Assembly (NCBI GenBank): GCA_038314665.1
Contig: GCA_038314665.1_3677.1
DNA: 64,000 nt
From: a phage
Reading direction: 5' to 3' (one strand)
Within the stretch, counting starts at the first letter, position 1; every line of letters starts with the position of its first letter. Both the position numbers and the translations under genes were made by a program. The notes beneath the pieces are model-generated. The model had not been told where the DNA came from, did not search any database, and worked only from the letters and a program-made list of their open reading frames with translations. Below are positions 2,960 to 49,853 of this stretch, in pieces.

Positions 2960-3433
2960 ATGGAAACTCAAATTTTAACTCCTTATGCGTATGACCCTAA
3001 AAAGGTCAAACTGTATCTGATGCAGCAGCGTGTCACTGGCTTCGCTGCTGACACCAAGATTGTTGTTTCAAGAAACGAAGACAACATTTATCCTCACGTC
3101 GGTGTGGATGGTGAAATGTCTGCGGCTCTGTCCCGTAACCAATCTGGTGTTATGACTGTGTCTTTGCAGAACACTTCTGTATGGAACGCTTACCTCTCTG
3201 ACTGGCAGAAACAGGCATCGATTACTGGCCTGGTATTCTTCCCGGTTCTGCTGGAAGGTAGCCAGGGCCCCGGTATTTCCACAATAGGTTGGATCCAGAA
3301 ACAGCCTGACCTGACTTACGGAACAGAAGTAGGTCAACTGGACTGGGATATCGGTATTCTGGATGCATGGCTCAACCGTGATAACATCACTGGTGCTCTC
3401 ACTGGCCTCGCAGGTCTTGCAGGTATTATCTAA
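2960..3433 (+). CDS. tail tube protein
   Basis: 157-aa ORF immediately after sheath gene, followed by a strong terminator; size and position typical of myovirus tube proteins. Confidence 0.55.
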   Translation: METQILTPYAYDPKKVKLYLMQQRVTGFAADTKIVVSRNEDNIYPHVGVDGEMSAALSRNQSGVMTVSLQNTSVWNAYLSDWQKQASITGLVFFPVLLEGSQGPGISTIGWIQKQPDLTYGTEVGQLDWDIGILDAWLNRDNITGALTGLAGLAGII

Positions 3434-3450
3434 GGGCACACTTTAGCATA

Positions 3451-3480
3451 AGCCTCACCTTAGGGTGGGGCTTTTTGCTT
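3451..3480 (+). terminator. rho-independent terminator
   Basis: GC-rich hairpin CCTCACC-TTAG-GGTGGGG followed by TTTTTGCTTTTTATT. Confidence 0.7.
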
Positions 3481-3524
3481 TTTATTGTTTTGACACACGT
3501 TCTTGAATTGCTTGAAAGGTTAAA

Positions 3525-3553
3525 TTGACAATGCATCATAATCATGGTAAAAT
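3525..3553 (+). promoter_or_regulatory. sigma70-like promoter with extended -10 (TTGACA-N17-TGgTAAAAT)
   Basis: -35 TTGACA 3525-3530, 17-nt spacer, -10 TAAAAT 3548-3553 preceded by TGG. Confidence 0.55.
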
Positions 3554-3596
3554 ACACAAATATGGTGCACAACATGACTAATAAGGATGCTATAAA

Positions 3597-4070
3597 ATGG
3601 CTATAAACTTTAGACCTACAACAGAGATTGATTTAGCAGGGCACAACTTTGTGATCACCCACTGGGGACCGATGAAAGCAATGAAAAACATGCCTAAAAT
3701 CGGTAAGATTGTGGCTGTTCCGCTAGGTGCTATCGGTGGATCTATTATCTCTGGCGGTCAGAATATGGCAGAGGTCCTTCCTACTGCCCTGGCTTACCTG
3801 TTCCAAGAACTTGATGATAACTCTATTGAAGAGTTATTTAAAATCTTGTTCGAAGATGTTACCGTGGATGGTGTAGATAAGCTTAACCCAGATGTTGTGT
3901 TTGCAGGGCATCTTCTGGAGATGATTAAGCTGGCAGGTAAGGTTCTGGAGGTTAACTACGGCTGTTTTTTCACACAAGACGGTTTAGGAAGCCTTCTGGA
4001 GATGTTACAGCAGATGGGTATGATTCAGCAGGTGAACAACCTGGATCAGACTCCGGAAGAGCAGGAATAA
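3597..4070 (+). CDS. tail assembly chaperone (G-like)
   Basis: 157-aa ORF between tube and tape-measure genes; contains slippery heptamer near its 3' end. Confidence 0.55.
   Translation: MAINFRPTTEIDLAGHNFVITHWGPMKAMKNMPKIGKIVAVPLGAIGGSIISGGQNMAEVLPTALAYLFQELDDNSIEELFKILFEDVTVDGVDKLNPDVVFAGHLLEMIKLAGKVLEVNYGCFFTQDGLGSLLEMLQQMGMIQQVNNLDQTPEEQE
3965..3971 (+). other. candidate -1 programmed ribosomal frameshift site (T TTT TTC)
   Basis: Heptamer in X XXY YYZ register of the 3597 ORF; the -1 frame is open from here with no stop through 4330, joining the 4082..4330 ORF. Confidence 0.45.
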
Positions 4071-4081
4071 GCAAGGTTGTT

Positions 4082-4330
4082 GTGAGGGCCAGTGAGTGGG
4101 CAGCCAAGAACAGTTCACTTAACTGGTTCGACTTTCTTTGGTGCAGGGTGCTCAAGAATTTCAAAGGGGAAAATTTTGAATCGCTAAATCTTGCAGATAT
4201 GGCGTATTTCCTGAAGCTCTGTGAGTATCTTGATATTGAAGAATTCCTAGATACCGTCCAAAACAGGGAAATGGAGCGGGAGCAGAAGGCTGCCGCAGCT
4301 GCTGCGAAAGCTAAGCGCAGGAGAGGATAA
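4082..4330 (+). CDS. C-terminal extension of tail assembly chaperone (GT-like, reached by -1 frameshift)
   Basis: Open frame with GTG pseudo-start and no convincing independent RBS; same frame as the -1 shift from 3965-3971; Lys/Ala-rich C-terminus. Confidence 0.45.
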   Translation: MRASEWAAKNSSLNWFDFLWCRVLKNFKGENFESLNLADMAYFLKLCEYLDIEEFLDTVQNREMEREQKAAAAAAKAKRRRG

Positions 4331-4384: not shown

Positions 4385-6724
4385 ATGGCTACAAACAAAA
4401 TAGTTGCCACAACAGTCAACAAGATTGGCTTTGAGATAGAGAACTCCTCCTACAAAAAAGCTGTAGAGAAAATTCGCAGTATTGGGAGGGAGTTCAGGAA
4501 ACTAGGTGAGGATTTTAACTCAGCCAACCCCATGGGGAGATGGCAGGCGGTAGCTGTTAAAACCCAGCAGACAATGCAGAGGGTTGCCAGACAGCAATCT
4601 CAGGCAAATGCTAAACTGCACAGGGAGAGCGTAACACAGGCTAAGAAAGAGGCTGCAGTAAGGGCTGCAATAGAACGTAGGGAGAATGCGAGACGTAAAC
4701 AAGCTGTAGGTAATCTTACCGCTAAAAATCCAGAAATGGCTAGGATGCGTAAGTTCTACCAGCAGCAAGCTAAAGAGGCCAAAAAGGCTGCCAAATCTGC
4801 ACCAGTGTCTTACGGTGGTTATAAGGCACCTAAGGCAAGAGTTTTGGCTAATGCCAAATCTTTCAAATATATCCCCGGTAACCCTAATATGGGTGGTGTG
4901 GCTTCCGACCCTAACCTTGTGAAAGCTCAGACAGCCGCTATGAATCGTTATCATAGACAGCTAAGAAGAGACAGTAAAGCTGGTATGGATAATAAGCTTA
5001 TGTCGGATCGTGAGGCAAGGAGAACCCACCTCTACAACTCCGCGATAAGACTTTCTGCCAAGTATGGGGCCGGATTCCGTGGAAGCTTGCCAGGATACTC
5101 AGAGTTAGAGTCCAGGTTTGCTCGTGGGGAGATGAAAAAGTCAACATTTAATGCCCACTTGTCAGCGCTGCAGTCTGGATTTAAAAGCGCCACCAGTCAA
5201 ACGCTTACACTAGGCGATGCCATGAGAGACCTACGTAGATCTGTTATTAATGCAACAGCTGCGTATACGGCTTTTTCTGGATTTACTGCTGTTAACAGAT
5301 CCGGTCACATGATGGAGGGTGCAAGTGCTGCTCTTACTGCTGTTACTGGAGATCCAAACAAAGCCAACAGTGAGGTTGCGTTTGTCCAGCAAGAGGCTAT
5401 GCGTCTTGGTTTTGATCTCAAATCTGGTCTTCAAGGTTACGCCCAGATGGCGGTAAACGCCAAAAACCAGATGACAAATCAGGAGGTTCATGAGCTGTTC
5501 TCTGCATACTCCCAGTATGCTGCTGCTTATGGTGCTGATGAGGTAAAATATCAGCGCGGTATCATGGCAATACAACAAATGCTAGGCAAGGGACAAGTAA
5601 TGTCCGAAGAACTGAAGCAACAACTTGCTGAAGCGTTGCCTGGTGCATACGAACCTTTTATCAAGGCCACCAAAGAGGCTTTTGGTCTTTCTGAACTATC
5701 CATGGATCAGTTCATGGACATGATGAAGAAAGGTGAGGTTAAAACAGCCAAGATCATGAAGTATGTGGCTAAGTACATGAACGAGGCATCTGCAGCTGGT
5801 TATGAAAGAATGCAGAAGTCTAACGTACTGGCAGAAAACAGACTGAAAACCTTCATCGAACTGTCTCGTCAGAAACTGTTCACCCGTTGGGCAGATGAAT
5901 TGACAGAGTTCTACTACACCCTGATCCGCACAGGTGAGACTCTGCAATTTGTGTGGGATGCCTCAGGTGATTTTGTTAGCGGATTTATTAGAGGCCTTAA
6001 CTGGGTTGTTGGTGAGCTAAACAACACTATAGTTAAGATCCGCCTGTTTTTCCTTGAGTGGGGCATCAAATGGGGGTTCATAACAGCTAAGACGAAGGAG
6101 TATTCCGAAGAGCTGCATGACACCTTCAGCACTGCCAAATGGGCAGGGTATGCTGCTGCCATTATGCTGGTAGTGCACGCTCTTACAAAAGGGTTTGTCA
6201 TGGCATCCATGCTTGTAAAAACTTTTAAGTTCCTTAGCACCCTGAAAGGTGCAGCTGGAGCTGCTGGCGCTGGTGCCATCACCACAGGGGGTTCTGTAGG
6301 TGGCGCAGCAGGAAAAGGTGGTGGAATAAAAGCACCAGGCATCAAAGGTACCGGTATGTTAGGCAAGTTGGGGATACTTGGGACATTATTGAGTGCTGGG
6401 GCTATGGTTAATGATCGTTTCAACCCTTTCAGTGAGAGAAATCAACAGCTGGATACTATTAGTGACATGATCCGCAAAGATATAGTATCGGGTGGCAACG
6501 GGTTTGTTAATCCTCTAGACACTTTACCTGGTGGAACCCTTCCGCTACCCGGTGGTCCTGGTTTTGCCTCTCAACTGAGAACCATGGAAATGTTACCTTT
6601 GGAGATCAGCGATGGTAAAATCACCATTTCGATAGATGAAGGTGAGTTTAGCAAAATACTTGATGCAAAACTTGAGTGGGAGAATAACAAAGATATTAAC
6701 TTTATGTCAACAGATCTTTGGTAA
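4385..6724 (+). CDS. tail tape measure protein
   Basis: 779-aa ORF after the chaperone pair; long predicted helical N-terminal part, Gly/Ala-rich hydrophobic segment (GAAGAAGAGAITTGGSVGGAAGKGGG), GGAAACC RBS. Confidence 0.7.
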   Translation: MATNKIVATTVNKIGFEIENSSYKKAVEKIRSIGREFRKLGEDFNSANPMGRWQAVAVKTQQTMQRVARQQSQANAKLHRESVTQAKKEAAVRAAIERRENARRKQAVGNLTAKNPEMARMRKFYQQQAKEAKKAAKSAPVSYGGYKAPKARVLANAKSFKYIPGNPNMGGVASDPNLVKAQTAAMNRYHRQLRRDSKAGMDNKLMSDREARRTHLYNSAIRLSAKYGAGFRGSLPGYSELESRFARGEMKKSTFNAHLSALQSGFKSATSQTLTLGDAMRDLRRSVINATAAYTAFSGFTAVNRSGHMMEGASAALTAVTGDPNKANSEVAFVQQEAMRLGFDLKSGLQGYAQMAVNAKNQMTNQEVHELFSAYSQYAAAYGADEVKYQRGIMAIQQMLGKGQVMSEELKQQLAEALPGAYEPFIKATKEAFGLSELSMDQFMDMMKKGEVKTAKIMKYVAKYMNEASAAGYERMQKSNVLAENRLKTFIELSRQKLFTRWADELTEFYYTLIRTGETLQFVWDASGDFVSGFIRGLNWVVGELNNTIVKIRLFFLEWGIKWGFITAKTKEYSEELHDTFSTAKWAGYAAAIMLVVHALTKGFVMASMLVKTFKFLSTLKGAAGAAGAGAITTGGSVGGAAGKGGGIKAPGIKGTGMLGKLGILGTLLSAGAMVNDRFNPFSERNQQLDTISDMIRKDIVSGGNGFVNPLDTLPGGTLPLPGGPGFASQLRTMEMLPLEISDGKITISIDEGEFSKILDAKLEWENNKDINFMSTDLW

Positions 6725-6732
6725 TAAACTGC

Positions 6733-6760
6733 GGGGGGCTCCGGCCCCCTTTATTTTTAT
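6733..6760 (+). terminator. rho-independent terminator
   Basis: GGGGGC-TCCG-GCCCCC hairpin followed by TTTATTTTTAT. Confidence 0.8.
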
Positions 6761-6765
6761 CGGTG

Positions 6766-6794
6766 TTGTAAAAACAGCTATTTTATGATACAAT
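6766..6794 (+). promoter_or_regulatory. sigma70-like promoter candidate (TTGTAA-N17-TGaTACAAT)
   Basis: -35 TTGTAA 6766-6771, 17-nt spacer, -10 TACAAT 6789-6794 preceded by TG. Confidence 0.4.
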
Positions 6795-6827
6795 ATCTAA
6801 ATGGTATCGGAGTGTCCTGGAGAGGTT

Positions 6828-7712
6828 ATGCCAAATAATATAGTTGATGAAAAAGATCTGTACAAGCCTCAAGAGGTTAAGTCTCCAAAGGCTGAAAAGG
6901 CTGAGCAGCAAACTGAAGGTGATGTAAAGTACACTATGTTTGTCAGCGGTCTTAACTATGGTGGTCGCAATACGGAGATGAAGGGTAAAAACTTTACTAA
7001 CGATCTTGCTATTATCTTCGACCAGGTTGAGAACTATTCTTTCAAACATTCTGTTGATAAAACTGGTTTTGCAGTGGAAGATAAATCTACCATGTCAGAC
7101 CACGCTGTAATTAAAGATGGTGTATTTTCTTTTACTGGTAGGGTAAATACATCCCCACATATAATTTATGAGCAAAACTACATTGATAGGAATACTGACT
7201 CTAAAAACCCTGCAGCATCTATGAGACCAGGCGCTGCATTGGAGGCTTTGACTGAGATTATCAATAAGCGACAGTTGGTTTCCTTGGTTACCGAGGAGAG
7301 ACTCCTTGAGAACTATATCATAACCAGCCTTTCTGCCAACAAGTCTGTTGGTGAAGGGGCTGCAATGGTGTTTGATGTAGAACTTACAGAATTTCGCACA
7401 TTTTACTTGAACAAAGTTGTTAATGCAACAGTGTACAGCAATCCTAAAAAAGTTGGGAAGACCCAGCAAAAAGGTGCTGTCAACGATTGCAAGAATGGTA
7501 GTAATGTAGGTAACAAGAGAGATACAGGGGCATTTGCAGACACTGCATCCACAAATGCTGCAGAAGAGTGGCAGCCATACAAGTCTATGATGTGGACAGA
7601 TGAAAACGGTGTTACCCAGTCCGCTGCCGATTGGTACTATCAGGAATATGGAAGACCTTCCACTATAGTTCCGTCAGAGCAGGGAAACTACGACAAAGTT
7701 AACGGAAAATAA
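6828..7712 (+). CDS. hypothetical tail/baseplate protein
   Basis: ORF in six-frame track from 6801; ATG at 6828 preferred because of GGAG RBS and because the promoter -10 sits at 6789-6794. Confidence 0.4.
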   Translation: MPNNIVDEKDLYKPQEVKSPKAEKAEQQTEGDVKYTMFVSGLNYGGRNTEMKGKNFTNDLAIIFDQVENYSFKHSVDKTGFAVEDKSTMSDHAVIKDGVFSFTGRVNTSPHIIYEQNYIDRNTDSKNPAASMRPGAALEALTEIINKRQLVSLVTEERLLENYIITSLSANKSVGEGAAMVFDVELTEFRTFYLNKVVNATVYSNPKKVGKTQQKGAVNDCKNGSNVGNKRDTGAFADTASTNAAEEWQPYKSMMWTDENGVTQSAADWYYQEYGRPSTIVPSEQGNYDKVNGK

Positions 7713-7723
7713 GGGGAACAGTA

Positions 7724-8104
7724 ATGGAGCTTAAAGATTGGTGTGTAATCACTTTTGTGTGGGACATTGATGGCTTTCCTGATCAAACCATGCGTGTTGT
7801 TTTAGATAACGAAACGTATGAAATGCGTATGCAGTGGAATGAAAGAGATGAGTCCTGGTGGCTATCCCTTGGTCCGGTAGGGGATAGTCCTCTAGTAACC
7901 AGAAAGGTAACAGCTTGCCAAGATATTTTAGACGGTCTGCATTACAGAGACGATTTACCGAAAGGTAGATTGATGGCTTTGTCGTTTAAAGACGATCAAT
8001 ATTGGGGCAGGGTTGGAAGGTACAACCTTGGTGCGAGATCTGAGTTACAACTTGTGTACGGCACCCCAGTTGATCTTTACAAGGAACAGCAAGGGTTAGA
8101 CTAA
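7724..8104 (+). CDS. hypothetical tail/baseplate protein
   Basis: 126-aa ORF with GGGGAACAG RBS, tightly packed in the baseplate region. Confidence 0.4.
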   Translation: MELKDWCVITFVWDIDGFPDQTMRVVLDNETYEMRMQWNERDESWWLSLGPVGDSPLVTRKVTACQDILDGLHYRDDLPKGRLMALSFKDDQYWGRVGRYNLGARSELQLVYGTPVDLYKEQQGLD

Positions 8105-41577: not shown

Positions 41578-41811
41578 TTAATCTTCGTAAATCAGGATTT
41601 CTGCTTTAGGTTTTCGTGCTTTCAGGTCCAGCTCTATCCAGTGCACCATAGCTGTTTCAAGAAAAACAGCTTGGATGCATCCGTCCTCAGCGTGCCCCAC
41701 CAACATAACAAGATCTTCACATTCGTCATCTGCATCACGAACATACAGAATCTCTCCAGATTCAAAGTCTTTCACAACCTGATTGCTGGATAATTTACGA
41801 ATTTTTGCCAT
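41578..41811 (-). CDS. small paralogue family A, member 4
   Basis: 77 aa; shares G(E/T)(I/V)(L/V)..V and C-terminal (E/K)I.I(L/Y) features with the three upstream 87-aa ORFs. Confidence 0.45.
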   Translation of the reverse strand: MAKIRKLSSNQVVKDFESGEILYVRDADDECEDLVMLVGHAEDGCIQAVFLETAMVHWIELDLKARKPKAEILIYED

Positions 41812-41812
41812 A

Positions 41813-42076
41813 TCAGAAACCCTCTAAAAAGCTCTTGTAGAAAACAATCTCAGTATCCACACCAGTCACGATCTTGTCGTTCCTGATTTCGTCGGTAAGA
41901 TAGGTGTCAAAACGCAGAACCTGTGTGGTGTTGTCACACATCCACTCAGCTGTGACCATTGCGAAAATCTTAGCATCTTCATTGTCTGGTGTGAATGTTA
42001 CCACCTCACCGCACTTAAACTTTTCGATAGGTTGAGTGTTGGCTTTCGGTTCTGCGATAGTGATTTTTGTGGTCAT
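41813..42076 (-). CDS. small paralogue family A, member 3
   Basis: 87 aa; CGEVVTF and TGVDTEIVFY segments alignable with neighbours. Confidence 0.5.
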   Translation of the reverse strand: MTTKITIAEPKANTQPIEKFKCGEVVTFTPDNEDAKIFAMVTAEWMCDNTTQVLRFDTYLTDEIRNDKIVTGVDTEIVFYKSFLEGF

Positions 42077-42339
42077 TATTCTCCTCCTTCTTTTGAATAG
42101 CTTGTCTCTCCAAGGATGGTAATTTTGGTGTCAAGCTCTGTAACTTTCATGTTTGGCGGCAGATCGTACAACTCATTATTTTCTAAATCGAAACCCCACA
42201 CACAATGTTCTCCTGTTTTGACAATCATAACTATGTTTTGAATGCCGTCTCCGTCGCAACTTACCACGGTCCCACACGGAAAACTGTCTGCACGCTTTTT
42301 GTTCTTCACCTTAGAATTGAATACAATGCTAGTAGCCAT
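42076..42339 (-). CDS. small paralogue family A, member 2
   Basis: 87 aa; MAT..F.S..K.KK N-terminus, CGTVV and VTELDTKITILGE shared with member 1. Confidence 0.5.
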   Translation of the reverse strand: MATSIVFNSKVKNKKRADSFPCGTVVSCDGDGIQNIVMIVKTGEHCVWGFDLENNELYDLPPNMKVTELDTKITILGETSYSKEGGE

Positions 42340-42602
42340 TATTGTTCCTCCACCATAACTTCGCCAAGAATTTCTATGCAGGCATCCATTTCTGTAACAA
42401 CCGAACTGTGAGGTAGTTCTACAAACACCTTTCTGAACAGGTCAAATACCCCAACATATATGTTTGCAGGATGTGATTTTACAACAAGTGCTGTATTCAC
42501 ATCCCCAAGTTCATCAACAAACATCACCACAGTGCCTGGAGCTACTGAGGACAGATACTTCTTAGTTTTACGGTTTGATGCAAATTTTAACTCTGTTGCC
42601 AT
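42339..42602 (-). CDS. small paralogue family A, member 1
   Basis: 87 aa; PGTVV and VTEMDACIEILGE; 1-nt overlap with member 2. Confidence 0.5.
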   Translation of the reverse strand: MATELKFASNRKTKKYLSSVAPGTVVMFVDELGDVNTALVVKSHPANIYVGVFDLFRKVFVELPHSSVVTEMDACIEILGEVMVEEQ

Positions 42603-42617
42603 AAATAACCTCCTCTC

Positions 42618-44099
42618 TTACTTAGCGTACTCGATTAATTCCACAGTTTTCCCAAAGCTCGGGATATAATTTTTATTATACCCATCAGTGAGGACCCATA
42701 GAGTATCGTACTTTTTCCACTTGTTGTCAATAGCCTTTTGTTCAAAGTTATGCTCAAAGTATAGGTCGGTCAGGACGATGACATCTTTTGCATTCGGTAT
42801 GTTGGCATCCAGATACTCGAACACGCAAGCAGCTGTTGTTCCCCATGTTGAGTGGACCTCATAGTTGATTATCTCGTCTATGTTGCCACGAGTGTATACT
42901 TTAACCTCTCCAACCTCAGTTGACCAACAGAACATTGTAACCTTAAACTCTTTATACAGATTGCACAATCCGGTGATTTCATTGAACATTTTCTTTAAAG
43001 TTCTTTGAGAGATCGAGCCAGAAACGTCTAAAGCCACCACAATATCTATAGTGTTTTCCGGATTACGACCAGGAACAATAACGTGCTGGTTCTTGTTTAT
43101 AGCCCCAACTTTTCGCATTGTGCTGGTCAAAGACCCAGATCGGCGACCAGGTTTTCTGTAGGTCAGTTCGGCCTTTCTTTTAGACAACATGCGTTGCTTA
43201 ATGATGTCTATATAATTGATTACGGGCTTACCTCTGTTCTTGACAAACTCGCGCACCGCCTCAGGGCAACGACCTCCGGAAGCTTGCATTGCTGCCTCCA
43301 GCATGTCACCAGAGTCCTGCATGGCCTGATCTTTATCAGATTGGCTGATTACAGGTTGTGGCTGATCATACCCCATAGCCTTTCCAAGATTATCACTGGT
43401 GCCACCATTCCCACTCATGTGATCATCGGTTTGTCGCTTATCGCCTTGAGAGTTCTCACCTTTACCGCTCTTACTTTTACCGTTATTCTGATCTCTTTGC
43501 TTATCAAGAACTGCATAGACGTTCTCAGCAATCCATCCATGAAACTTCATGTCGCAGTAGCAGCTGGCTAAGAAGCCAAAAGGCTTACCTTTCACGAACG
43601 TAGTGCTTTTCCCCTTCGGGAAGAAAACACAAGGAGGTTTGCTAAAGTCAACCACAAGGCCTGTGTTGATAACGTGATCACAAGCAATATTGAACAGTTC
43701 CGGCTCAAAGCTTTTACCACGGACCAGGTGATCACAGATAATATGCCCCACCTCATGTGACAAAAGAAAGGCCACCTCTTTCACAGATTTGGGGGAATAG
43801 AAAACCTCAGCCATCTCAAACTGCTCGTCAGTTAGAGAAGCCTTAAGAATAGCCCTGCGTTCGTCAGCCAACCCCACAATGAACTCAGGACTGTAATAGA
43901 TGCGTTTATGGTCGGTTGCCATGGTGGAGCACCATGTGTGGTTTTCTACGAACTGCAACCCTGACAGTAGTGTGCCATAAAAAGGCAGCTTTTCAAGAAG
44001 ATACATACGTGCAGCTTGCAACATTCTCAGGGCATCATCTTTCTGTGAGGTAATGATTTCTGAACTTCTGCTATCCATTAAAACTCCAGAAGGGGCCAT
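42618..44099 (-). CDS. VWA-domain protein with N-terminal HExxH metallopeptidase-like domain
   Basis: 493 aa; HEVGH zinc-binding motif near N-terminus, long Gly/Ser/Asp/Lys-rich low-complexity linker, C-terminal MIDAS motif DVSGS. Confidence 0.65.
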   Translation of the reverse strand: MAPSGVLMDSRSSEIITSQKDDALRMLQAARMYLLEKLPFYGTLLSGLQFVENHTWCSTMATDHKRIYYSPEFIVGLADERRAILKASLTDEQFEMAEVFYSPKSVKEVAFLLSHEVGHIICDHLVRGKSFEPELFNIACDHVINTGLVVDFSKPPCVFFPKGKSTTFVKGKPFGFLASCYCDMKFHGWIAENVYAVLDKQRDQNNGKSKSGKGENSQGDKRQTDDHMSGNGGTSDNLGKAMGYDQPQPVISQSDKDQAMQDSGDMLEAAMQASGGRCPEAVREFVKNRGKPVINYIDIIKQRMLSKRKAELTYRKPGRRSGSLTSTMRKVGAINKNQHVIVPGRNPENTIDIVVALDVSGSISQRTLKKMFNEITGLCNLYKEFKVTMFCWSTEVGEVKVYTRGNIDEIINYEVHSTWGTTAACVFEYLDANIPNAKDVIVLTDLYFEHNFEQKAIDNKWKKYDTLWVLTDGYNKNYIPSFGKTVELIEYAK

Positions 44100-44111
44100 T
44101 GGCCCCTGTCA

Positions 44112-45155
44112 TTATTTAACGTGTTTGAAAATACCTGCCAACTCGGTCATTGTCATGCGAGTGGTCTTCATAAGGTCTGTCATAGCTTTCTCCATAATTG
44201 GAGATACTACCATAAAGTTTCCTTTAGTGAAACCTTTATTCCAGTCGGTCACCAACAGGGGTTTAAGTCCAGCTCCAAGACGTTCACCAGTTAAAGCACA
44301 GCATTTGCGAATATACGAACTCTTAAATTGGCTGAACGACAGATCAACTTTCATACCTGCATCGTAGAACGTTTGACAATAGAAAGTGTAAGCCTTAGCA
44401 ATCTCAACATCATCAGGCAGTGCAGGAACCTCTTCTGCAATCCCCTCTTCGACCTCCTGAGGCTCTTTTTCCTCTTCAGAGTTCTGTTCTTCAACTTCTT
44501 CTGTCACAGTCTCGTTTACGATGTCTGAAATGTGTTTGTTGGCTGCACGATCAGCCATGAAATTTTTAAAGTCCTGCATTGGTGACATATCTTCTTCCTC
44601 TTCGTCAAAGAGTGCCAGTTTATCCTCTTCCGTTCCATATTGCAAGATGAAATCTTCAAAAGTATAATCACCTTTCAATTTCTCCATACGCTCTTCGCTC
44701 AGGTGGAGCATCATCTGCTGGACAATTTTTCGATCAGTTTCGTCTTTAATCAAGACTGCAGTCTTTTTATCTACCAGACAGTCCTTTAGAGAGTTGCATC
44801 TCAATCCCACCACACAACAGTTATCAACCGCATAAGGACCTTCATCATCTATCCGCTCCAGAGATGGGTAGAAAGGATTTCCCAGCCCGTTTTCATCTGT
44901 GTGCATGTCAAAAGGTATAAGGGTATAGTCGCATACTCCATCTCCTAAAAGTTTTTTACCAAATAGGAGGTATTCTTCCCATGACAGGTCGAACTCTATA
45001 TCTCGTTTCCGTGCATTATTCTGTTTGCGTCTATATTTTTTGAGCAGGCGCTCTAACTCTTCTGGTGTATAATATTTTTCAAGATTCATGAGTTGTCTCT
45101 CGTGCTCTGTAAGTGAAGAAATCGTATCAATTGTCTCAACAGATGTCAACATCAA
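44112..45155 (-). CDS. hypothetical protein with internally duplicated degenerate HNH/AP2-like motif and poly-acidic linker
   Basis: 347 aa; N-terminal DLSWEEY...PSLERID...YAVDNCCVV...CN..K echoed near the C-terminus (DLSFSQF...PLLVTDWNKGFTKGNFMVV); central EEEED/EEVEEQNSEEEKE run. Confidence 0.4.
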   Translation of the reverse strand: MMLTSVETIDTISSLTEHERQLMNLEKYYTPEELERLLKKYRRKQNNARKRDIEFDLSWEEYLLFGKKLLGDGVCDYTLIPFDMHTDENGLGNPFYPSLERIDDEGPYAVDNCCVVGLRCNSLKDCLVDKKTAVLIKDETDRKIVQQMMLHLSEERMEKLKGDYTFEDFILQYGTEEDKLALFDEEEEDMSPMQDFKNFMADRAANKHISDIVNETVTEEVEEQNSEEEKEPQEVEEGIAEEVPALPDDVEIAKAYTFYCQTFYDAGMKVDLSFSQFKSSYIRKCCALTGERLGAGLKPLLVTDWNKGFTKGNFMVVSPIMEKAMTDLMKTTRMTMTELAGIFKHVK

Positions 45156-45162
45156 AAATGTG

Positions 45163-45191
45163 TTGACTTTACTCTAACTCCATAATATAGT
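45163..45191 (+). promoter_or_regulatory. sigma70-like promoter (TTGACT-N17-TATAGT) in divergent intergenic region
   Basis: -35 TTGACT 45163-45168, 17-nt spacer, -10 TATAGT 45186-45191, upstream of 45232 ORF. Confidence 0.5.
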
Positions 45192-45231
45192 GCACCCATT
45201 CGAAAGAAAACTAACATAGGAGCACTTACTT

Positions 45232-46131
45232 ATGGCAAATCTTAACAGTTTTAGTACGCGGTGGAAACAGGACATAACAACCAATCTTTCAGCTGGGGAC
45301 ATCCTTTCTGCAATTTACGAGGCTTTAGATGATAAAGCTACTTCAAAAGCGGTTTGTACCAACCCACTAATTCCTGTAGTGATGAAGGTTATTGAGCGTA
45401 GATTGGTATCTGGGTCTGATAAGTGGACATATTTAGATAATGAAGGACACACCTATTCCAATGGGTATGTCGATATAAAAGTAGAATACGCGGTATCATA
45501 CCGCCGAAGCGGTTCTGTGACTTTCAACTTTTCTGGAGGTTTCAGATCTCTGGCAACTTCACCTTTTGTTTCCTCAGAAGAGAAGTATGAGCTGCCATTT
45601 CTTTGGATGATGGCTAACGCGACAGGAAAAACCCCCGTTAGCATCCGAGTAAAATACAATTACAACGGATCTAGTAAGATCTATGCCGAAAGTGTCTCAG
45701 CAAGTTTTTATTTTGTGATGGGGGATGGAATCCTCAAACATATAAAGATGTGCGATATGCATGATGTTATAAATGAAGTGACTGATAAGAATGTTCTAGT
45801 GAAAGACCTCAACAATTTTTATACACCCGGAGACTATTACGTCAACCGTCCACTGTGCATCTTTAATGCCGCACACCCTCTAGGTGAGTATTTGATCGCC
45901 AATAGCGATATTGCCAATAACCGCTTCGAGGTAGCAAGAGTTCAGAATGAGGTATTGACATCTTGCAAGAGCGGTGATAAGTTTACCGAAGAAGAGATGG
46001 GTGTTTTAGAAATGATGGGATATAAGTGTAGCCTTTGGGTAGATGAGGTGTTTAATGATTGCATCTATGGACAGGATATTCACCCACTAAAGAAGTATAC
46101 TGATTCCAGTTTAATTTACGCGGAGATTTGA
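45232..46131 (+). CDS. hypothetical early protein
   Basis: 299-aa ORF with AGGAG RBS. Confidence 0.5.
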   Translation: MANLNSFSTRWKQDITTNLSAGDILSAIYEALDDKATSKAVCTNPLIPVVMKVIERRLVSGSDKWTYLDNEGHTYSNGYVDIKVEYAVSYRRSGSVTFNFSGGFRSLATSPFVSSEEKYELPFLWMMANATGKTPVSIRVKYNYNGSSKIYAESVSASFYFVMGDGILKHIKMCDMHDVINEVTDKNVLVKDLNNFYTPGDYYVNRPLCIFNAAHPLGEYLIANSDIANNRFEVARVQNEVLTSCKSGDKFTEEEMGVLEMMGYKCSLWVDEVFNDCIYGQDIHPLKKYTDSSLIYAEI

Positions 46132-46406
46132 CTATGATGAAGTCATGTGGTAGTGTATATTATGTTGGTGAGAATGTTCAGGCAGATAGTGTGTGGAAAT
46201 CCATTAAGTCCACCACCGATGATGCCTTTCTGAGCGGGTTATGTTTTCCCAATCCGGGAGACATCCTCCCTCATCCTGGAGATTTTGTTGTCAACAAGAT
46301 GGACGGTTATACCGTGTGCCTGATGGTTGAAAAAATCTTTTTAGACACTAGACACAATCACCGTCTTGTGTTAAAATTTCAAGAATGTAAAATGACAATT
46401 TCCTAA
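46128..46406 (+). CDS. hypothetical protein
   Basis: 92-aa ORF overlapping upstream stop. Confidence 0.4.
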   Translation: MTMMKSCGSVYYVGENVQADSVWKSIKSTTDDAFLSGLCFPNPGDILPHPGDFVVNKMDGYTVCLMVEKIFLDTRHNHRLVLKFQECKMTIS

Positions 46407-46419
46407 GGAGACCTTACCG

Positions 46420-46776
46420 ATGTCTAAAGTTACTTATCGTGCAGCTATTTACTGCAATGAACACCCAATCAATAATGATGGTCACTGCCTTTTCAAAGAA
46501 AATCAGTTGGGATGTATTGTCCTCCCTGATGAAGGGGAAGGTTATCTGATTGCATTAACAGGGTTTGAGCCTGAAGCTTTGGAAGCCAATCTGGACTACC
46601 TGGTAGAAGAGGGTGCTGCAGACCTGGTTGCCAATGGCTTCCCCGTAAGCCTTGACGAAGTGGAGCGCTTCATGGGCAATTACCGTGTAGTGCGTGAGTT
46701 TACTATCGAGGTGGAAACTCCAGAGTGGGGCAGCCATGAAACTAATGCCGAAGAAAAAGAAGAGGGGGTAGAATAA
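46420..46776 (+). CDS. hypothetical acidic protein
   Basis: 118-aa ORF with AAGGAGA RBS; Glu-rich C-terminus. Confidence 0.45.
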   Translation: MSKVTYRAAIYCNEHPINNDGHCLFKENQLGCIVLPDEGEGYLIALTGFEPEALEANLDYLVEEGAADLVANGFPVSLDEVERFMGNYRVVREFTIEVETPEWGSHETNAEEKEEGVE

Positions 46777-47033
46777 TGAAAGTGCAGATCTTGACTAATG
46801 CCGAGAAGATGTTTATCGAAGATACACCTTTTGAAGCTGGTGAGCTACAGTTCGTTTATTTTGTTGACTTAGATAAGGTGTTCCCTGCACTGAATCTGGG
46901 TCTGGATGAAGTTCCTCATAAGGTTTTGTGCCAAGTTGTTCGTGCATTAGCGGCAGATGGAGAGTTCCACACCCTTCAAGATGTCCAGACCTACGGGTAC
47001 CTTGAACTACAACGAGAAGAAGAGGTGGACTGA
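46776..47033 (+). CDS. hypothetical protein
   Basis: 85-aa ORF, coupled start. Confidence 0.4.
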   Translation: MKVQILTNAEKMFIEDTPFEAGELQFVYFVDLDKVFPALNLGLDEVPHKVLCQVVRALAADGEFHTLQDVQTYGYLELQREEEVD

Positions 47034-47035
47034 TA

Positions 47036-47416
47036 ATGGCTCAGTGGAAGACAACAGTTGACCTTCATGATCAGTGGTTAGGACGCATCACTGAAGACGG
47101 GAAGCTAGTGGAGTGGGACAATAAGCATGTTAGCGAGTTGGCAAGTATTGTGGCTGGTAAGCTACGCTCCAAGTTCCCTGAACAACTGGATCCTGATAGT
47201 TCAAAGTTCGATCCTGAGTTGGAGGATGTTGTATACTACTTCGACACCGTTGATGACTACGATGCGTGGTTTGCAGCACGGGAGCTTTACCCACAAGGCT
47301 CTGCTATGCGCCAGATGGAAGAAGATTATCCTCCGTGCGAGCAATTTAATAGCGCAATGACTTGCCTCTACGATTGGGCAGATAAGAACCTTGTCTGGAT
47401 TCGGACTGCATTTTAG
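47036..47416 (+). CDS. hypothetical protein
   Basis: 126-aa ORF. Confidence 0.45.
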   Translation: MAQWKTTVDLHDQWLGRITEDGKLVEWDNKHVSELASIVAGKLRSKFPEQLDPDSSKFDPELEDVVYYFDTVDDYDAWFAARELYPQGSAMRQMEEDYPPCEQFNSAMTCLYDWADKNLVWIRTAF

Positions 47417-47460
47417 TGGGCAGGAATGGCGGCAAGGATGCTGCTTAAGGAGTAGTAGAG

Positions 47461-47730
47461 ATGTTATACCAGCAATATGAACTTCGTGCAGAAAAAGAGT
47501 TAAATTTTGACAAAGATATTCACAGATATTATTATGGGAAAGTTAGAGGGCAAGCAAGAAAGTGTACTCCAACACTCTTTTATGCCAGCAGACGACTAGC
47601 GCCAGAAGAGGCAACAGCAGAAAGGGTTGCGTACAACTGGAGAGTCACGTATGATATTGACAGATCCGATGTGATATCTGTTTTGGAAAACTTTGAAAAC
47701 ACTTACACACAAGTAGAGGACTTTTACTAA
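47461..47730 (+). CDS. hypothetical protein
   Basis: 89-aa ORF with AAGGAG RBS. Confidence 0.45.
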   Translation: MLYQQYELRAEKELNFDKDIHRYYYGKVRGQARKCTPTLFYASRRLAPEEATAERVAYNWRVTYDIDRSDVISVLENFENTYTQVEDFY

Positions 47731-48914
47731 TGTCAAGAAACGTATTTGAAAGTGGTCAAATCACTGTCCGTGAGTTGCCAGCTATCATTCAGTTTGCCCA
47801 GCGTCATAACCGATCTGTCCTGATTTTAGGACCAATGGGCGTGGGAAAGAGCCAAGTGATGAAGCAGATCGCCGATAATATGTTCGGTGAGCGAGATGAT
47901 AACTTGGTTGACGTGCGACTGTCAGATAAAGATCCTGCCGACTTATCTGGGCTACCTATCCCTGTAGAAGCGGATGGAACTACACGTACAGTATTTGCAA
48001 TTCCAGAATTTTGGCCTGCGGATCCTGACTGGAGCGGAATTATCTTTCTGGATGAGCTCACTCATGCAGATAACTACCTGCAAAAGGTTGCAATGCAAAT
48101 TATGCTCGACCACAAGTGCGGTACCTATGCATTCCCTAAGGGTTCTGTTTTTGTGGCTGCTGGTAACCGTTCTACAGATGGTGCGGTTCTTTCGGCGCTC
48201 GAAGCCCCTCTGGCTAACCGTTTTATCATTGTAGAAGTTACAAGCAATGCAGAGGTGTTTATTGAGGACTACGCATTCCTTAATGGGGTGCACTCCTCTG
48301 TAATTGGATATCTGAAAAGAGTTCCATCAGCTATCGATAATTATGAGGCCATGGCTGAGATTAATTGTCCATCTTTTGCCACACCACGATCTTGGGTTGC
48401 TGCATCTGATATCTTGCACGATTTTGACAGCGGTATTATTTCTGACGCTATGGCCCGTGTTCTTCTGCAAGGTGCTATCGGTCACACTGCAGCGGTAGAG
48501 ATCTGGACTTACCACACCAAGAAACGCAACTTACCGGAAATCGGTCGGATTATGGCAGGAGGTTGCAAAGAATACGTAGGTCCTAAACAGCCGGACATCT
48601 TGTGGATTCTTGGATCTGAAGGTTGTATCGCTATTCGTAATATGATGGAAAATGCAAGTATCTCCGACGAAGATCTTGTTAGCTGTGTGGCAAACTTCCT
48701 CGATTTCCTTTGGGAAAACTTCAAGGACGAGAACCGAGATTTTGTATTCTCAGTCTTTATGGCGATGATGAAACCTAATGCCTTAGGAAATGCCTTGCTT
48801 ATCGGTAAAGGTCGTGACAAGATCGTTGCTCAGCTGATCAAAGCATACCCAAACCTGATGAAGATTGTAAAGGAGTTTGGTGAAGAGTTTAGCGCCATTT
48901 TGGCTAAAGCTTAA
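47730..48914 (+). CDS. MoxR-like AAA+ ATPase (CobS-like)
   Basis: 394 aa; Walker A GPMGVGKS, Walker B IIFLDELTHAD, single AAA module of MoxR/AAA_5 size. Confidence 0.65.
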   Translation: MSRNVFESGQITVRELPAIIQFAQRHNRSVLILGPMGVGKSQVMKQIADNMFGERDDNLVDVRLSDKDPADLSGLPIPVEADGTTRTVFAIPEFWPADPDWSGIIFLDELTHADNYLQKVAMQIMLDHKCGTYAFPKGSVFVAAGNRSTDGAVLSALEAPLANRFIIVEVTSNAEVFIEDYAFLNGVHSSVIGYLKRVPSAIDNYEAMAEINCPSFATPRSWVAASDILHDFDSGIISDAMARVLLQGAIGHTAAVEIWTYHTKKRNLPEIGRIMAGGCKEYVGPKQPDILWILGSEGCIAIRNMMENASISDEDLVSCVANFLDFLWENFKDENRDFVFSVFMAMMKPNALGNALLIGKGRDKIVAQLIKAYPNLMKIVKEFGEEFSAILAKA

Positions 48915-48923
48915 GGAGGTTGT

Positions 48924-49304
48924 ATGGCTAAAGTAGGTAAGCGGGGAAACTACCTGGTGGTATTAACTGAGGAGCCGGAGAAGGAGTACGAATGCAGCTC
49001 CACTTGCGTGATCGATATCCGAGAAAAAGATGTAGATGAAATCTGGTTTAAAATATTGGACGCTTGCGATAGCAGTGATTATTTCTTCATCTATGTCAAC
49101 GATAAGGCTGGGTTCTTCCATGACGACGGAGAGTTACCGTATGAAATTTATGAACTTGTAGAGGCTTGCCATCGTGGAGATGCGGAGTTATTTGGCTTAC
49201 GGCTGAAAAGCGGTAAATTCTTCTATCAAGATGAGTGCATGAATCTTCATAACTTTGTAGAGGGAACTTGCAACGATGGAGAAATTTTGGCACACTACGA
49301 TTAA
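48924..49304 (+). CDS. hypothetical protein
   Basis: 126-aa ORF with AAGGAGG RBS. Confidence 0.45.
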   Translation: MAKVGKRGNYLVVLTEEPEKEYECSSTCVIDIREKDVDEIWFKILDACDSSDYFFIYVNDKAGFFHDDGELPYEIYELVEACHRGDAELFGLRLKSGKFFYQDECMNLHNFVEGTCNDGEILAHYD

Positions 49305-49314
49305 TTTCTAAGAC

Positions 49315-49345
49315 CACCCCGCTTCGGCGGGGATTTTCTATTTGG
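49315..49345 (+). terminator. rho-independent terminator
   Basis: CCCCGC-TTCG-GCGGGG hairpin followed by ATTTTCTATTT. Confidence 0.7.
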
Positions 49346-49352
49346 AGTTATT

Positions 49353-49853
49353 GTGAAAATTAAGATCTTTGCTATTATTTTGAGCGCATTTTTATCGCTG
49401 CCTGTTGTTGCAGCACCAAAACAAAAAGTATACCATACTTGCAAGCCATCAGATACTAAGGAAAACATTCTAGCATGCAATATCTACAGGGAAGCTAGAG
49501 GTGATGGCACGATGGGTATGCTGGCATCTGGGTTTGCCACCCTAAACAGGAAATCTCACCCCAAATACCCAGACACTATAAGAAAGATTGTCTACCAACC
49601 TAACCAGTTTTCGTGGACAAACCACGGCAAAACTTTTAAGGTGACAGAAAAAGATTCATGGGATCACGCTAAAAGTCTTGCAAAGATGCTTCTAAAGGTC
49701 TATAATAACAACCATGTTGCATACATGGCTATGGATATAACAGGTGGAGCAACACACTACCATACAACCAAAGTACGACCGAAATGGGCAAAAAAGATGC
49801 AGAGGACAGCTCAATTCGGGAGCCATATCTACTACAAGGAGTGCAATAAATGA
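49353..49853 (+). CDS. cell wall hydrolase (SleB/Hydrolase_2-like) with N-terminal signal peptide
   Basis: 166 aa; hydrophobic N-terminus MKIKIFAIILSAFLSLPVVAAP; motifs YREARGDG, NQFSWTNHG and GATHYHT resemble the SleB-type hydrolase fold. Confidence 0.55.
   Translation: MKIKIFAIILSAFLSLPVVAAPKQKVYHTCKPSDTKENILACNIYREARGDGTMGMLASGFATLNRKSHPKYPDTIRKIVYQPNQFSWTNHGKTFKVTEKDSWDHAKSLAKMLLKVYNNNHVAYMAMDITGGATHYHTTKVRPKWAKKMQRTAQFGSHIYYKECNK

Follow-up and report, generated by a model that had tools for sequence, protein, structure and literature searches.

Two open reading frames (ORFs) in a 64,000-nucleotide stretch of phage DNA (contig GCA_038314665.1_3677.1 of NCBI GenBank assembly GCA_038314665.1, hereafter the window) encode proteins that gene neighbourhood identifies as functional partners. 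The first, at positions 47730–48914 on the plus strand (394 residues), is a divergent MoxR-class AAA+ ATPase as judged from its homologues, profile searches and predicted structure. The second, at 42618–44099 on the minus strand (493 residues), is predicted to consist of an N-terminal zincin-like metallopeptidase domain, a disordered linker and a C-terminal VWA domain. The two genes lie on opposite strands, 3.63 kb apart, in divergent transcription units, and a preliminary description of the window, made from its sequence alone, had already drawn attention to the same two ORFs in this arrangement (3.6 kb apart). The ATPase and the zincin-VWA protein probably make up one conserved machine of two parts, the phage counterpart of the bacterial pair of a MoxR-type ATPase and a DUF2201 protein, which would act as an ATP-gated, adaptor-type protease or remodeller in the early or middle phase of infection. 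The 'ATP-driven remodelling or proteolytic device' of the preliminary description is a reasonable reading of such a pair.

Along its whole length, the region 42000–49400 shares 97–98% identity with over 100 Escherichia rV5-like myoviruses (Vequintavirus), with phiWec193, RudolfGeigy/Bas52, LL12 and Murica among the close relatives. Near-identical Vequintavirus records name the minus-strand ORF "putative metallopeptidase" or "VWA-like domain containing protein" and the plus-strand ORF "MoxR ATPase". The 2013 rV5 paper has "MoxR - ATPase" as its entry for gene 4, and calls the product of gene 12 conserved hypothetical, with a match to PF13203 (DUF2201_N). The identity of both proteins is thus already known, from annotation in near-identical genomes and from the architecture described in the literature.

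The ATPase and the zincin-VWA protein

The ATPase is a homologue of rV5 gp4 and N4 gp24 according to PHROG, profile, Foldseek and BLASTP searches, and carries a C-terminal helical extension of ~190 residues. It matches PHROG 1297 with an E-value of 1.4e-110. Taken alone, it falls below the cut-off of Pfam AAA_5 (16.7 bits vs 22); homologues at 35% identity (E-value ~1e-45) carry AAA_3, AAA_5 and bpMoxR. MoxR-class membership by sequence rests on transitive homology, because the window protein itself misses the AAA_5 cut-off. A profile of 28 family sequences matched the AAA domain of midasin with an E-value of 8e-13, far ahead of Clp and p97, and a single-sequence search against the PDB and NCBIfam returned P-loop-level matches only (ClpB, ClpC). 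The AlphaFold2 model has a predicted local distance difference test (pLDDT) score of 83.9. When it was compared with the PDB using Foldseek, ranks 1–18 were all NorQ or CbbQ2, with top E-values of 1e-8 to 4e-8 and template modelling scores, normalised to the target, of 0.59–0.66. With NorQ and CbbQ2 as the top structural matches and the midasin AAA domain as the match of the profile, the earlier assignment of this protein as MoxR-type is upheld, and it belongs to the MoxR class.

The catalytic motifs of AAA+ proteins are all present in the translation: Walker A, Walker B, sensor 1, arginine finger and sensor 2. Walker A (GPMGVGKS) is encoded at 47829–47852 and Walker B (IIFLDEL, with D108 and E109) at 48039–48059, both on the plus strand. 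Across 34 homologues, G37, G39, K40 and S41 of Walker A, D108 and E109 of Walker B, N146 (sensor 1), R164 and R220 are invariant. The features of the helix-2-insert/pre-sensor-1 clade are present in the predicted structure, where a hairpin (E75–81/E84–90) stands between β2 (59–63) and β3 (102–108), as for the helix-2 insert, and short strands (129–134) stand between the helix at 115–127 and β4 (138–145), as for the pre-sensor-1 β-hairpin. The ATPase also contains the motif RLSDKDPADLSGLP, which we take to resemble the 'PSDITG' insert of MoxR.

The partner protein belongs to the DUF2201 family and is a homologue of rV5 gp12 and N4 gp25, as assigned from Pfam, PHROG 1314, AlphaFold2 and BLASTP. 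It matches PHROG 1314 with an E-value of 2e-122 and contains both DUF2201 Pfam domains in N-to-C order: the zincin-like PF13203 (DUF2201_N, putative metallopeptidase; E-value 1.3e-27, 97.6 bits, gathering cut-off 23.2), followed by the VWA-like PF09967 (DUF2201; E-value 5.5e-11, 43.1 bits, gathering cut-off 26.4). The zincin-like metallopeptidase domain is assigned to 43482–44075 on the minus strand (residues ~9–206 in the numbering of the 493-residue form) and includes the HEVGH zinc-binding/catalytic motif at 43743–43757. It is followed by a low-complexity, charged linker at 43395–43481 (residues 207–235) and, at 42621–43052, by the VWA domain (residues ~350–493), whose metal ion-dependent adhesion site (MIDAS) consists of D358-x-S360-G-S362, T421 and D445, with the DVSGS motif at 43014–43028; all of these lie on the minus strand, and both motifs were read from the translation. 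In an alignment of 37 homologues with identities down to 20%, the columns of the zincin site (H115, E116, H119, H124 and D141) and of the MIDAS (D358, S360, G361, S362, T421 and D445) are invariant, and the MIDAS is complete. Since these columns are invariant across the 37 homologues, the HExxH and DxSGS motifs are not chance matches, and the claim in the preliminary description of a VWA protein with an N-terminal HEVGH motif is borne out, also by the two Pfam matches.

The AlphaFold2 model of this protein has a mean pLDDT of 80.8. Its N-terminal domain is a helical/β structure with three strands, a helix at 106–121 that carries the HExxH motif and a helix at 133–151, and its C-terminal part is an α/β domain. 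Besides the linker, a helical region connects the peptidase domain with the VWA domain. The linker has pLDDT values below 50 and is length-variable and gap-rich among homologues, in keeping with the long disordered linker noted before. Among solved structures, the best structural match of the protein is NorD. A profile of residues 1–206 gave weak matches to PDB entries, all of them M48/minigluzincin-type zincin peptidases (selecase with an E-value of 0.004; HtpX, an M48 peptidase, BepA and Ste24), and the larger secondary Pfam matches were to peptidase families, with Peptidase_M48 weakly matched in 9 of 16 members, followed by SprT-like, PhageMetallopep and M78. A single-sequence search of the PDB gave no match. 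In the profile searches suggested in the preliminary description, the DUF2201 zincin and VWA domains score above their cut-offs, AAA_5 remains at 16.7 bits against 22, and CobS/CobT models gave no match.

The first ATG of the VWA gene is at 44099, and a second at 44078 would give a protein of 486 residues. The latter is probably the true start, since it is preceded by a GGAG ribosome-binding site and public records use the same start (their coding sequence of 1461 nt begins at the equivalent of ATG 44078). A perfect GC-rich palindrome, AGGGGCCATTGGCCCCT, is located at 44091–44107 between the Srd-like gene and the VWA gene. It overlaps the first in-frame ATG, which argues for the downstream start, and it may be a terminator/attenuator or a translational control hairpin.

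On the minus strand at 41578–42602, the VWA gene is directly followed by a run of small ORFs, three of 87 residues (42339–42602, 42076–42339 and 41813–42076) and one of 77 residues. The first two are tandem paralogues (39% identical), and the others are 16–19% identical with a similar pattern. Homologues of these ORFs were found in rV5-type loci only.

The original record of rV5 breaks the VWA gene into a 441-residue gene 12 and an overlapping 81-residue gene 13; the window and most relatives have a single intact ORF, which suggests a frameshift or a sequencing error in that record. PHROG 1314, which corresponds to the DUF2201 zincin-VWA family, is labelled 'HNH endonuclease', and this label has spread to many GenBank and RefSeq phage records, including those of N4 gp25, PEV2 and slur16. 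Examples of the family are the window ORF (42618–44099), N4 gp25 (3165–4307 of locus L092) and PEV2 gp35 (6517–7743 of locus L091). The label looks like a propagated mis-annotation, because the only Pfam matches of the window protein are DUF2201_N and DUF2201. Additionally, sixteen unannotated 'Campylobacter phage' records (MG065644, MG065682, MG065635 and others), with Campylobacter jejuni given as host, are 98–99% identical to E. coli rV5-like phages in this region, and probably represent mislabelled hosts or contaminating coliphages.

Gene linkage and genomic context

Linkage of the two families was analysed in 80 IMG/VR loci fetched with the ATPase alignment and in further contigs, all scanned with hidden Markov models (HMMs) of both families. 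In 66 of the first 89 loci, the DUF2201 gene comes after the ATPase gene on the same strand; the median distance is 80 nt, and in a few cases one to four small genes intervene. These adjacent-type loci cover phage contigs and bacterial chromosomes, such as that of Sulfurivermis fontis. Another 11 loci are split, with the VWA gene inverted and placed 3.4–4.4 kb upstream, and all of these have ATPases at least 50% identical to that of the window. The remaining 12 loci are without a detected VWA gene, and 10 of them end within ~200 nt of the ATPase gene, so that the real exceptions are L013 and possibly L039 only. Both genes were present in all seven loci added later (L090–L096). The partnership of MoxR ATPases with VWA proteins, which the preliminary description had brought in as general background, is shown for these families by gene neighbourhood in the 66 adjacent-type loci, bacterial chromosomes and N4 included.

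The clear linkage exception, L013 (IMGVR_UViG_3300045988_163358), encodes an ATPase 59% identical to that of the window, followed by rIIA/rIIB; neither a DUF2201 gene nor other window genes were found within 10 kb upstream or 4 kb downstream.

The window genes between and around the pair were also compared with all loci, and none is co-conserved with it across lineages. Since no other window gene is co-conserved, the pair is best described as a two-gene module. The split, divergent layout is restricted to the rV5-like lineage and is the sole lineage-specific feature of the window's pair. The ancestral order, ATPase then VWA, has been broken in rV5-like phages, with the VWA gene inverted beyond a bidirectional promoter, which means that the partners need not be co-transcribed. 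The arrangement had been called unusual for a phage. This is not supported, as the module itself is common, being a core pair of N4-like phages and present in Vequintavirinae, Rak2-like jumbo phages and aquatic contigs (see also Iyer et al. 2021).

A tblastn search of 50,697 isolate phage records gave matches in 672 of them for the VWA protein and in 813 for the ATPase, or ~1.3–1.6% of isolate phage genomes. The counts by host genus run in parallel for the VWA protein and the ATPase (Escherichia 212/214, Pseudomonas 104/108, Pectobacterium 26/26 and Cronobacter 17/17). The carriers include Vequintavirinae, Rak2-like jumbo phages (phAPEC6, PBECO4), many N4-like podoviruses and many aquatic phage contigs. 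With such wide conservation (in phages, in the core of N4-like phages and in bacteria), the mechanism of the module is a modestly interesting question.

In the window, back-to-back divergent sigma-70-type promoter-like sites were identified at 45121–45191 by a promoter scan and from the sequence. The minus-strand site is TTGACA-17-TACGAT (45149–45121), the plus-strand site is TTGACT-17-TATAGT (45163–45191), and their -35 boxes sit in an inverted repeat (45145–45167). Both occupy the 142-nt gap between the Srd-like gene (44112–45089, minus strand) and gene 10 (starting at 45232, plus strand), and the same bidirectional promoters were reported in the rV5 paper. The leftward unit contains the Srd-like gene followed by the VWA gene, and the rightward unit six genes followed by the ATPase gene, which overlaps the preceding 89-codon ORF by one base. 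The two partners thus belong to different transcription units, as proposed earlier, that diverge from these sites.

A further near-consensus sigma-70 promoter-like site, TTGACA-17-TATTAT (11 of 12 matches), is located at 47507–47535 inside the 89-codon ORF, 195 nt upstream of the ATPase start, and may be an internal promoter for the ATPase gene.

The genes around the module differ between lineages. In the window, the ATPase gene is followed by genes for a SleB-like hydrolase, rIIA, rIIB and a DNA helicase; elsewhere the module is found among genes for 5'-3' exonuclease, thymidylate synthase, dCTP deaminase and DNA polymerase. Linkage to rIIA/rIIB is not universal, and holds only in Vequintavirinae and N4. 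The Srd-like 'anti-sigma factor' gene (PHROG 3118/4592/1400), which we regard as context and not as part of the module, is directly upstream of the VWA gene and adjoins it in split-type loci; its product, gp11, was called a Srd homologue in the rV5 paper. The PHROG labels of this ORF vary (HNH endonuclease, decoy of host sigma70, Srd anti-sigma factor and endonuclease VII). Its program-called form, 44112–45155, has a TTG start at 45155 that would overlap the minus-strand promoter, and the annotated start is the ATG at 45089.

In L007–L009, from Sulfurivermis fontis and a related gammaproteobacterium, genes for Hsp15 and thioredoxin directly precede the ATPase-DUF2201 pair, and HtpG or Lon and ferrochelatase are encoded close by. 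This neighbourhood, seen in two related genomes only, might hint at a role in proteostasis.

Proposed mechanism and alternatives

We think that the module acts inside the infected cell in the early or middle phase, on a host protein or a non-virion phage protein, and not in the particle, because both genes are read from sigma-70-type promoter-like sites in the early/replication region, close to rIIA/rIIB and the DNA helicase, the N4 homologues are middle genes, and neither protein is reported in rV5 virions, gp4 and gp12 being without the 'MS evidence' flag in the table of the rV5 virion proteome. In PEV2, the genes that surround the homologues are annotated from RNA-seq data as early-transcribed.

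A possible mechanism is suggested by NorQ-NorD, in which the VWA domain inserts a finger into the pore of the hexameric ATPase and the NorD linker is remodelled as ATP is hydrolysed. By analogy with this and other MoxR-VWA systems, a hexamer of the window ATPase would dock the VWA domain of its partner, whose MIDAS would bind a target protein through an acidic residue of that target. Hydrolysis of ATP would then pull or twist the charged linker, and this movement would either bring the bound target to the HExxH site to be cleaved or switch the peptidase on. Real hydrolysis is favoured over pure metal handling because the catalytic glutamate is invariant. A more specific version can be put forward only tentatively: the pair may be an ATP-gated, MIDAS-targeted, site-specific protease that N4-like podoviruses, rV5-like myoviruses, Rak2-like jumbo phages and aquatic phages need in the replication phase, and that cleaves or remodels one conserved bacterial protein or a phage replication or transcription factor. 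If so, it would explain the presence of gp24/gp25 among the 14 core genes of Schitoviridae, and would represent a new class of AAA+-dependent protease, with the peptidase on the VWA adaptor instead of on the ATPase.

Several points weigh against an ATP-gated protease or remodeller that acts early in infection. Complex formation, the hexamer, ATPase activity and peptidase activity are all predicted by analogy. The zincin fold of the N-terminal domain is likewise a prediction, drawn from Pfam, the weak profile matches and the order of secondary structure in the model, and in the fold searches with the model of the VWA protein both lists were filled by VWA matches and the N-terminal domain gave no match to a solved peptidase. 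Promoter-like sites are not enriched in the region (20 vs 15.5 ± 4.4 in shuffled sequence), and absence from the 2013 rV5 virion proteome is weak evidence. A literature search found no experimental work on DUF2201 or on any member of the pair's families. Finally, some N4-like phages have virion-protein genes near their gp24/gp25 homologues, which fits a role in assembly.

An assembly role has in fact been proposed in print for the same architecture in jumbo phages (Iyer et al. 2021). On the model of Acidianus two-tailed virus, which requires MoxR/VWA proteins to develop its tails, the pair would be a chaperone and protease that aids folding or assembly of a structural complex, with the zincin domain trimming structural proteins. 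MoxR-VWA systems are in general assembly chaperones, and the virion-protein genes near the gp24/gp25 homologues of roseophage RPP1 and LIT1 form a 'second structural module' that is expressed in mid-infection. We nevertheless regard this explanation as unlikely for the window. The genes lie in early/replication regions outside the late structural block (with rIIA/rIIB and helicase here and in N4, and with replication and nucleotide genes elsewhere), their counterparts in N4 belong to the middle genes, and the table of rV5 virion proteins flags neither of the two. Moreover, the module occurs in phages with myovirus, podovirus and jumbo virions that have no obvious structural protein in common, and on bacterial chromosomes as well. 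Both proteins have their nearest solved structures in a metal-insertion system, NorQ and NorD. This raises the alternative of a metal- or cofactor-insertion chaperone like NorQ/NorD, CoxD/CoxE or CobS/CobT, in which the HExxH motif would bind or hand over a metal and a phage or host metalloenzyme, such as ribonucleotide reductase, would be matured; the module is often found among genes of nucleotide metabolism. We consider such a function quite improbable, as E116 of the HExxH motif is invariant together with the metal ligands, as expected of a hydrolase, among the secondary family matches of the N-terminal domain the larger ones are to peptidases, CobS/CobT and chelatase models were not matched, and no metalloenzyme gene is consistently linked to the module.

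The preliminary description also pointed to the nucleoside triphosphate (NTP)-dependent conflict systems, and the pair could by extension be an anti-defence or host-takeover effector modelled on their MoxR-vWA ternary type. The two have the MoxR-vWA core in common, and the early placement beside the Srd-like anti-sigma gene and rIIA/rIIB would suit such an effector. However, the defining third component (VMAP, iSTAND, FtsH or β-propeller) is absent and no third gene is co-conserved, PADLOC gave P-loop-level noise only, and a core pair of all N4-like phages across very different hosts is unlike a variable counter-defence gene, which together make this explanation highly improbable. An ATP-gated protease or remodeller acting inside the cell is the explanation that we prefer.

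Comparison with known systems

Two candidate identities were tried and rejected. For CobS/CobT or Mg-chelatase (BchI/BchD), no Pfam or NCBIfam model was matched, and BchD was just one of many VWA fold matches. For an NTP-dependent conflict system of the MoxR-vWA ternary type (Kaur et al. 2020), no third gene is co-conserved and no VMAP, iSTAND, FtsH or β-propeller Pfam domains were found in the neighbours; PADLOC on the window returned weak P-loop-level matches only and no meaningful match to a defence system.

NorQ/NorD, together with CbbQ/CbbO, are the best structural matches for both window proteins, and the layout of the partner protein is alike, with an N-terminal domain, a linker and a C-terminal VWA domain. 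In contrast to the window protein, NorD and CbbO have no peptidase domain with HExxH, and they serve to insert a metal or to reactivate rubisco. Sequence identity between the systems is 9–21%, and in the phage ATPase the lid is followed by ~120 additional residues that form a helical region.

The operons of a MoxR-type ATPase and a DUF2201 protein in bacteria (PF13203/PF09967, 'predicted metal-dependent peptidase') are closer, with the same domain order, the same invariant residues and the ATPase gene immediately upstream, as in Sulfurivermis fontis (AP018724). They differ in being chromosomal, in sharing 21–28% identity with the window proteins and in their cellular context (thioredoxin, Hsp15, Lon and ferrochelatase). 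The pair of a MoxR protein and a vWA cochaperone with an N-terminal metallopeptidase, described in group 2.2 jumbo phages with a proposed role in virion assembly or proteolytic processing (Iyer et al. 2021, Viruses 13:63), has the same two-protein architecture, and Rak2-like and other jumbo phages carry homologues. The window differs from these in representing a 137-kb Vequintavirus, in its split gene layout and in the placement of the genes in the early region.

N4 gp24 (AAA ATPase) and gp25 (vWFA protein) of Schitoviridae are direct homologues of the window pair, with BLASTP E-values of 3e-28 and 1e-21 and E-values of 7e-59 and 5e-84 against the HMMs of the window families. Both belong to the set of 14 core genes of N4-like phages, in which their entries read "unknown" and "vWFA domain", and both are transcribed as middle genes. 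Searching the text of the CRISPRi-ART paper for gp24, gp25, MoxR and vWA turned up no reference to these genes. N4 gp25 has the same HExxHxxxxH, D and DxSGS motifs as the window VWA protein, and in both phages the module precedes rIIA-rIIB and a DNA helicase in the same order (ATPase, rIIA, rIIB, helicase). The window proteins are longer than those of N4, with a 30-residue insert in the peptidase domain (~75–105), a longer linker and a longer C-terminal extension of the ATPase. In N4, gp24 and gp25 lie side by side on the same strand and N4 RNAPII transcribes them, whereas in the window the two genes are on opposite strands, 3.63 kb apart, with sigma-70-type promoters. Because these comparisons tie rV5 gp4/gp12 both to N4 gp24/gp25 and to the pair of the jumbo phages, a single experiment in a tractable coliphage, such as N4 or a BASEL Vequintavirus, would inform all of these systems.

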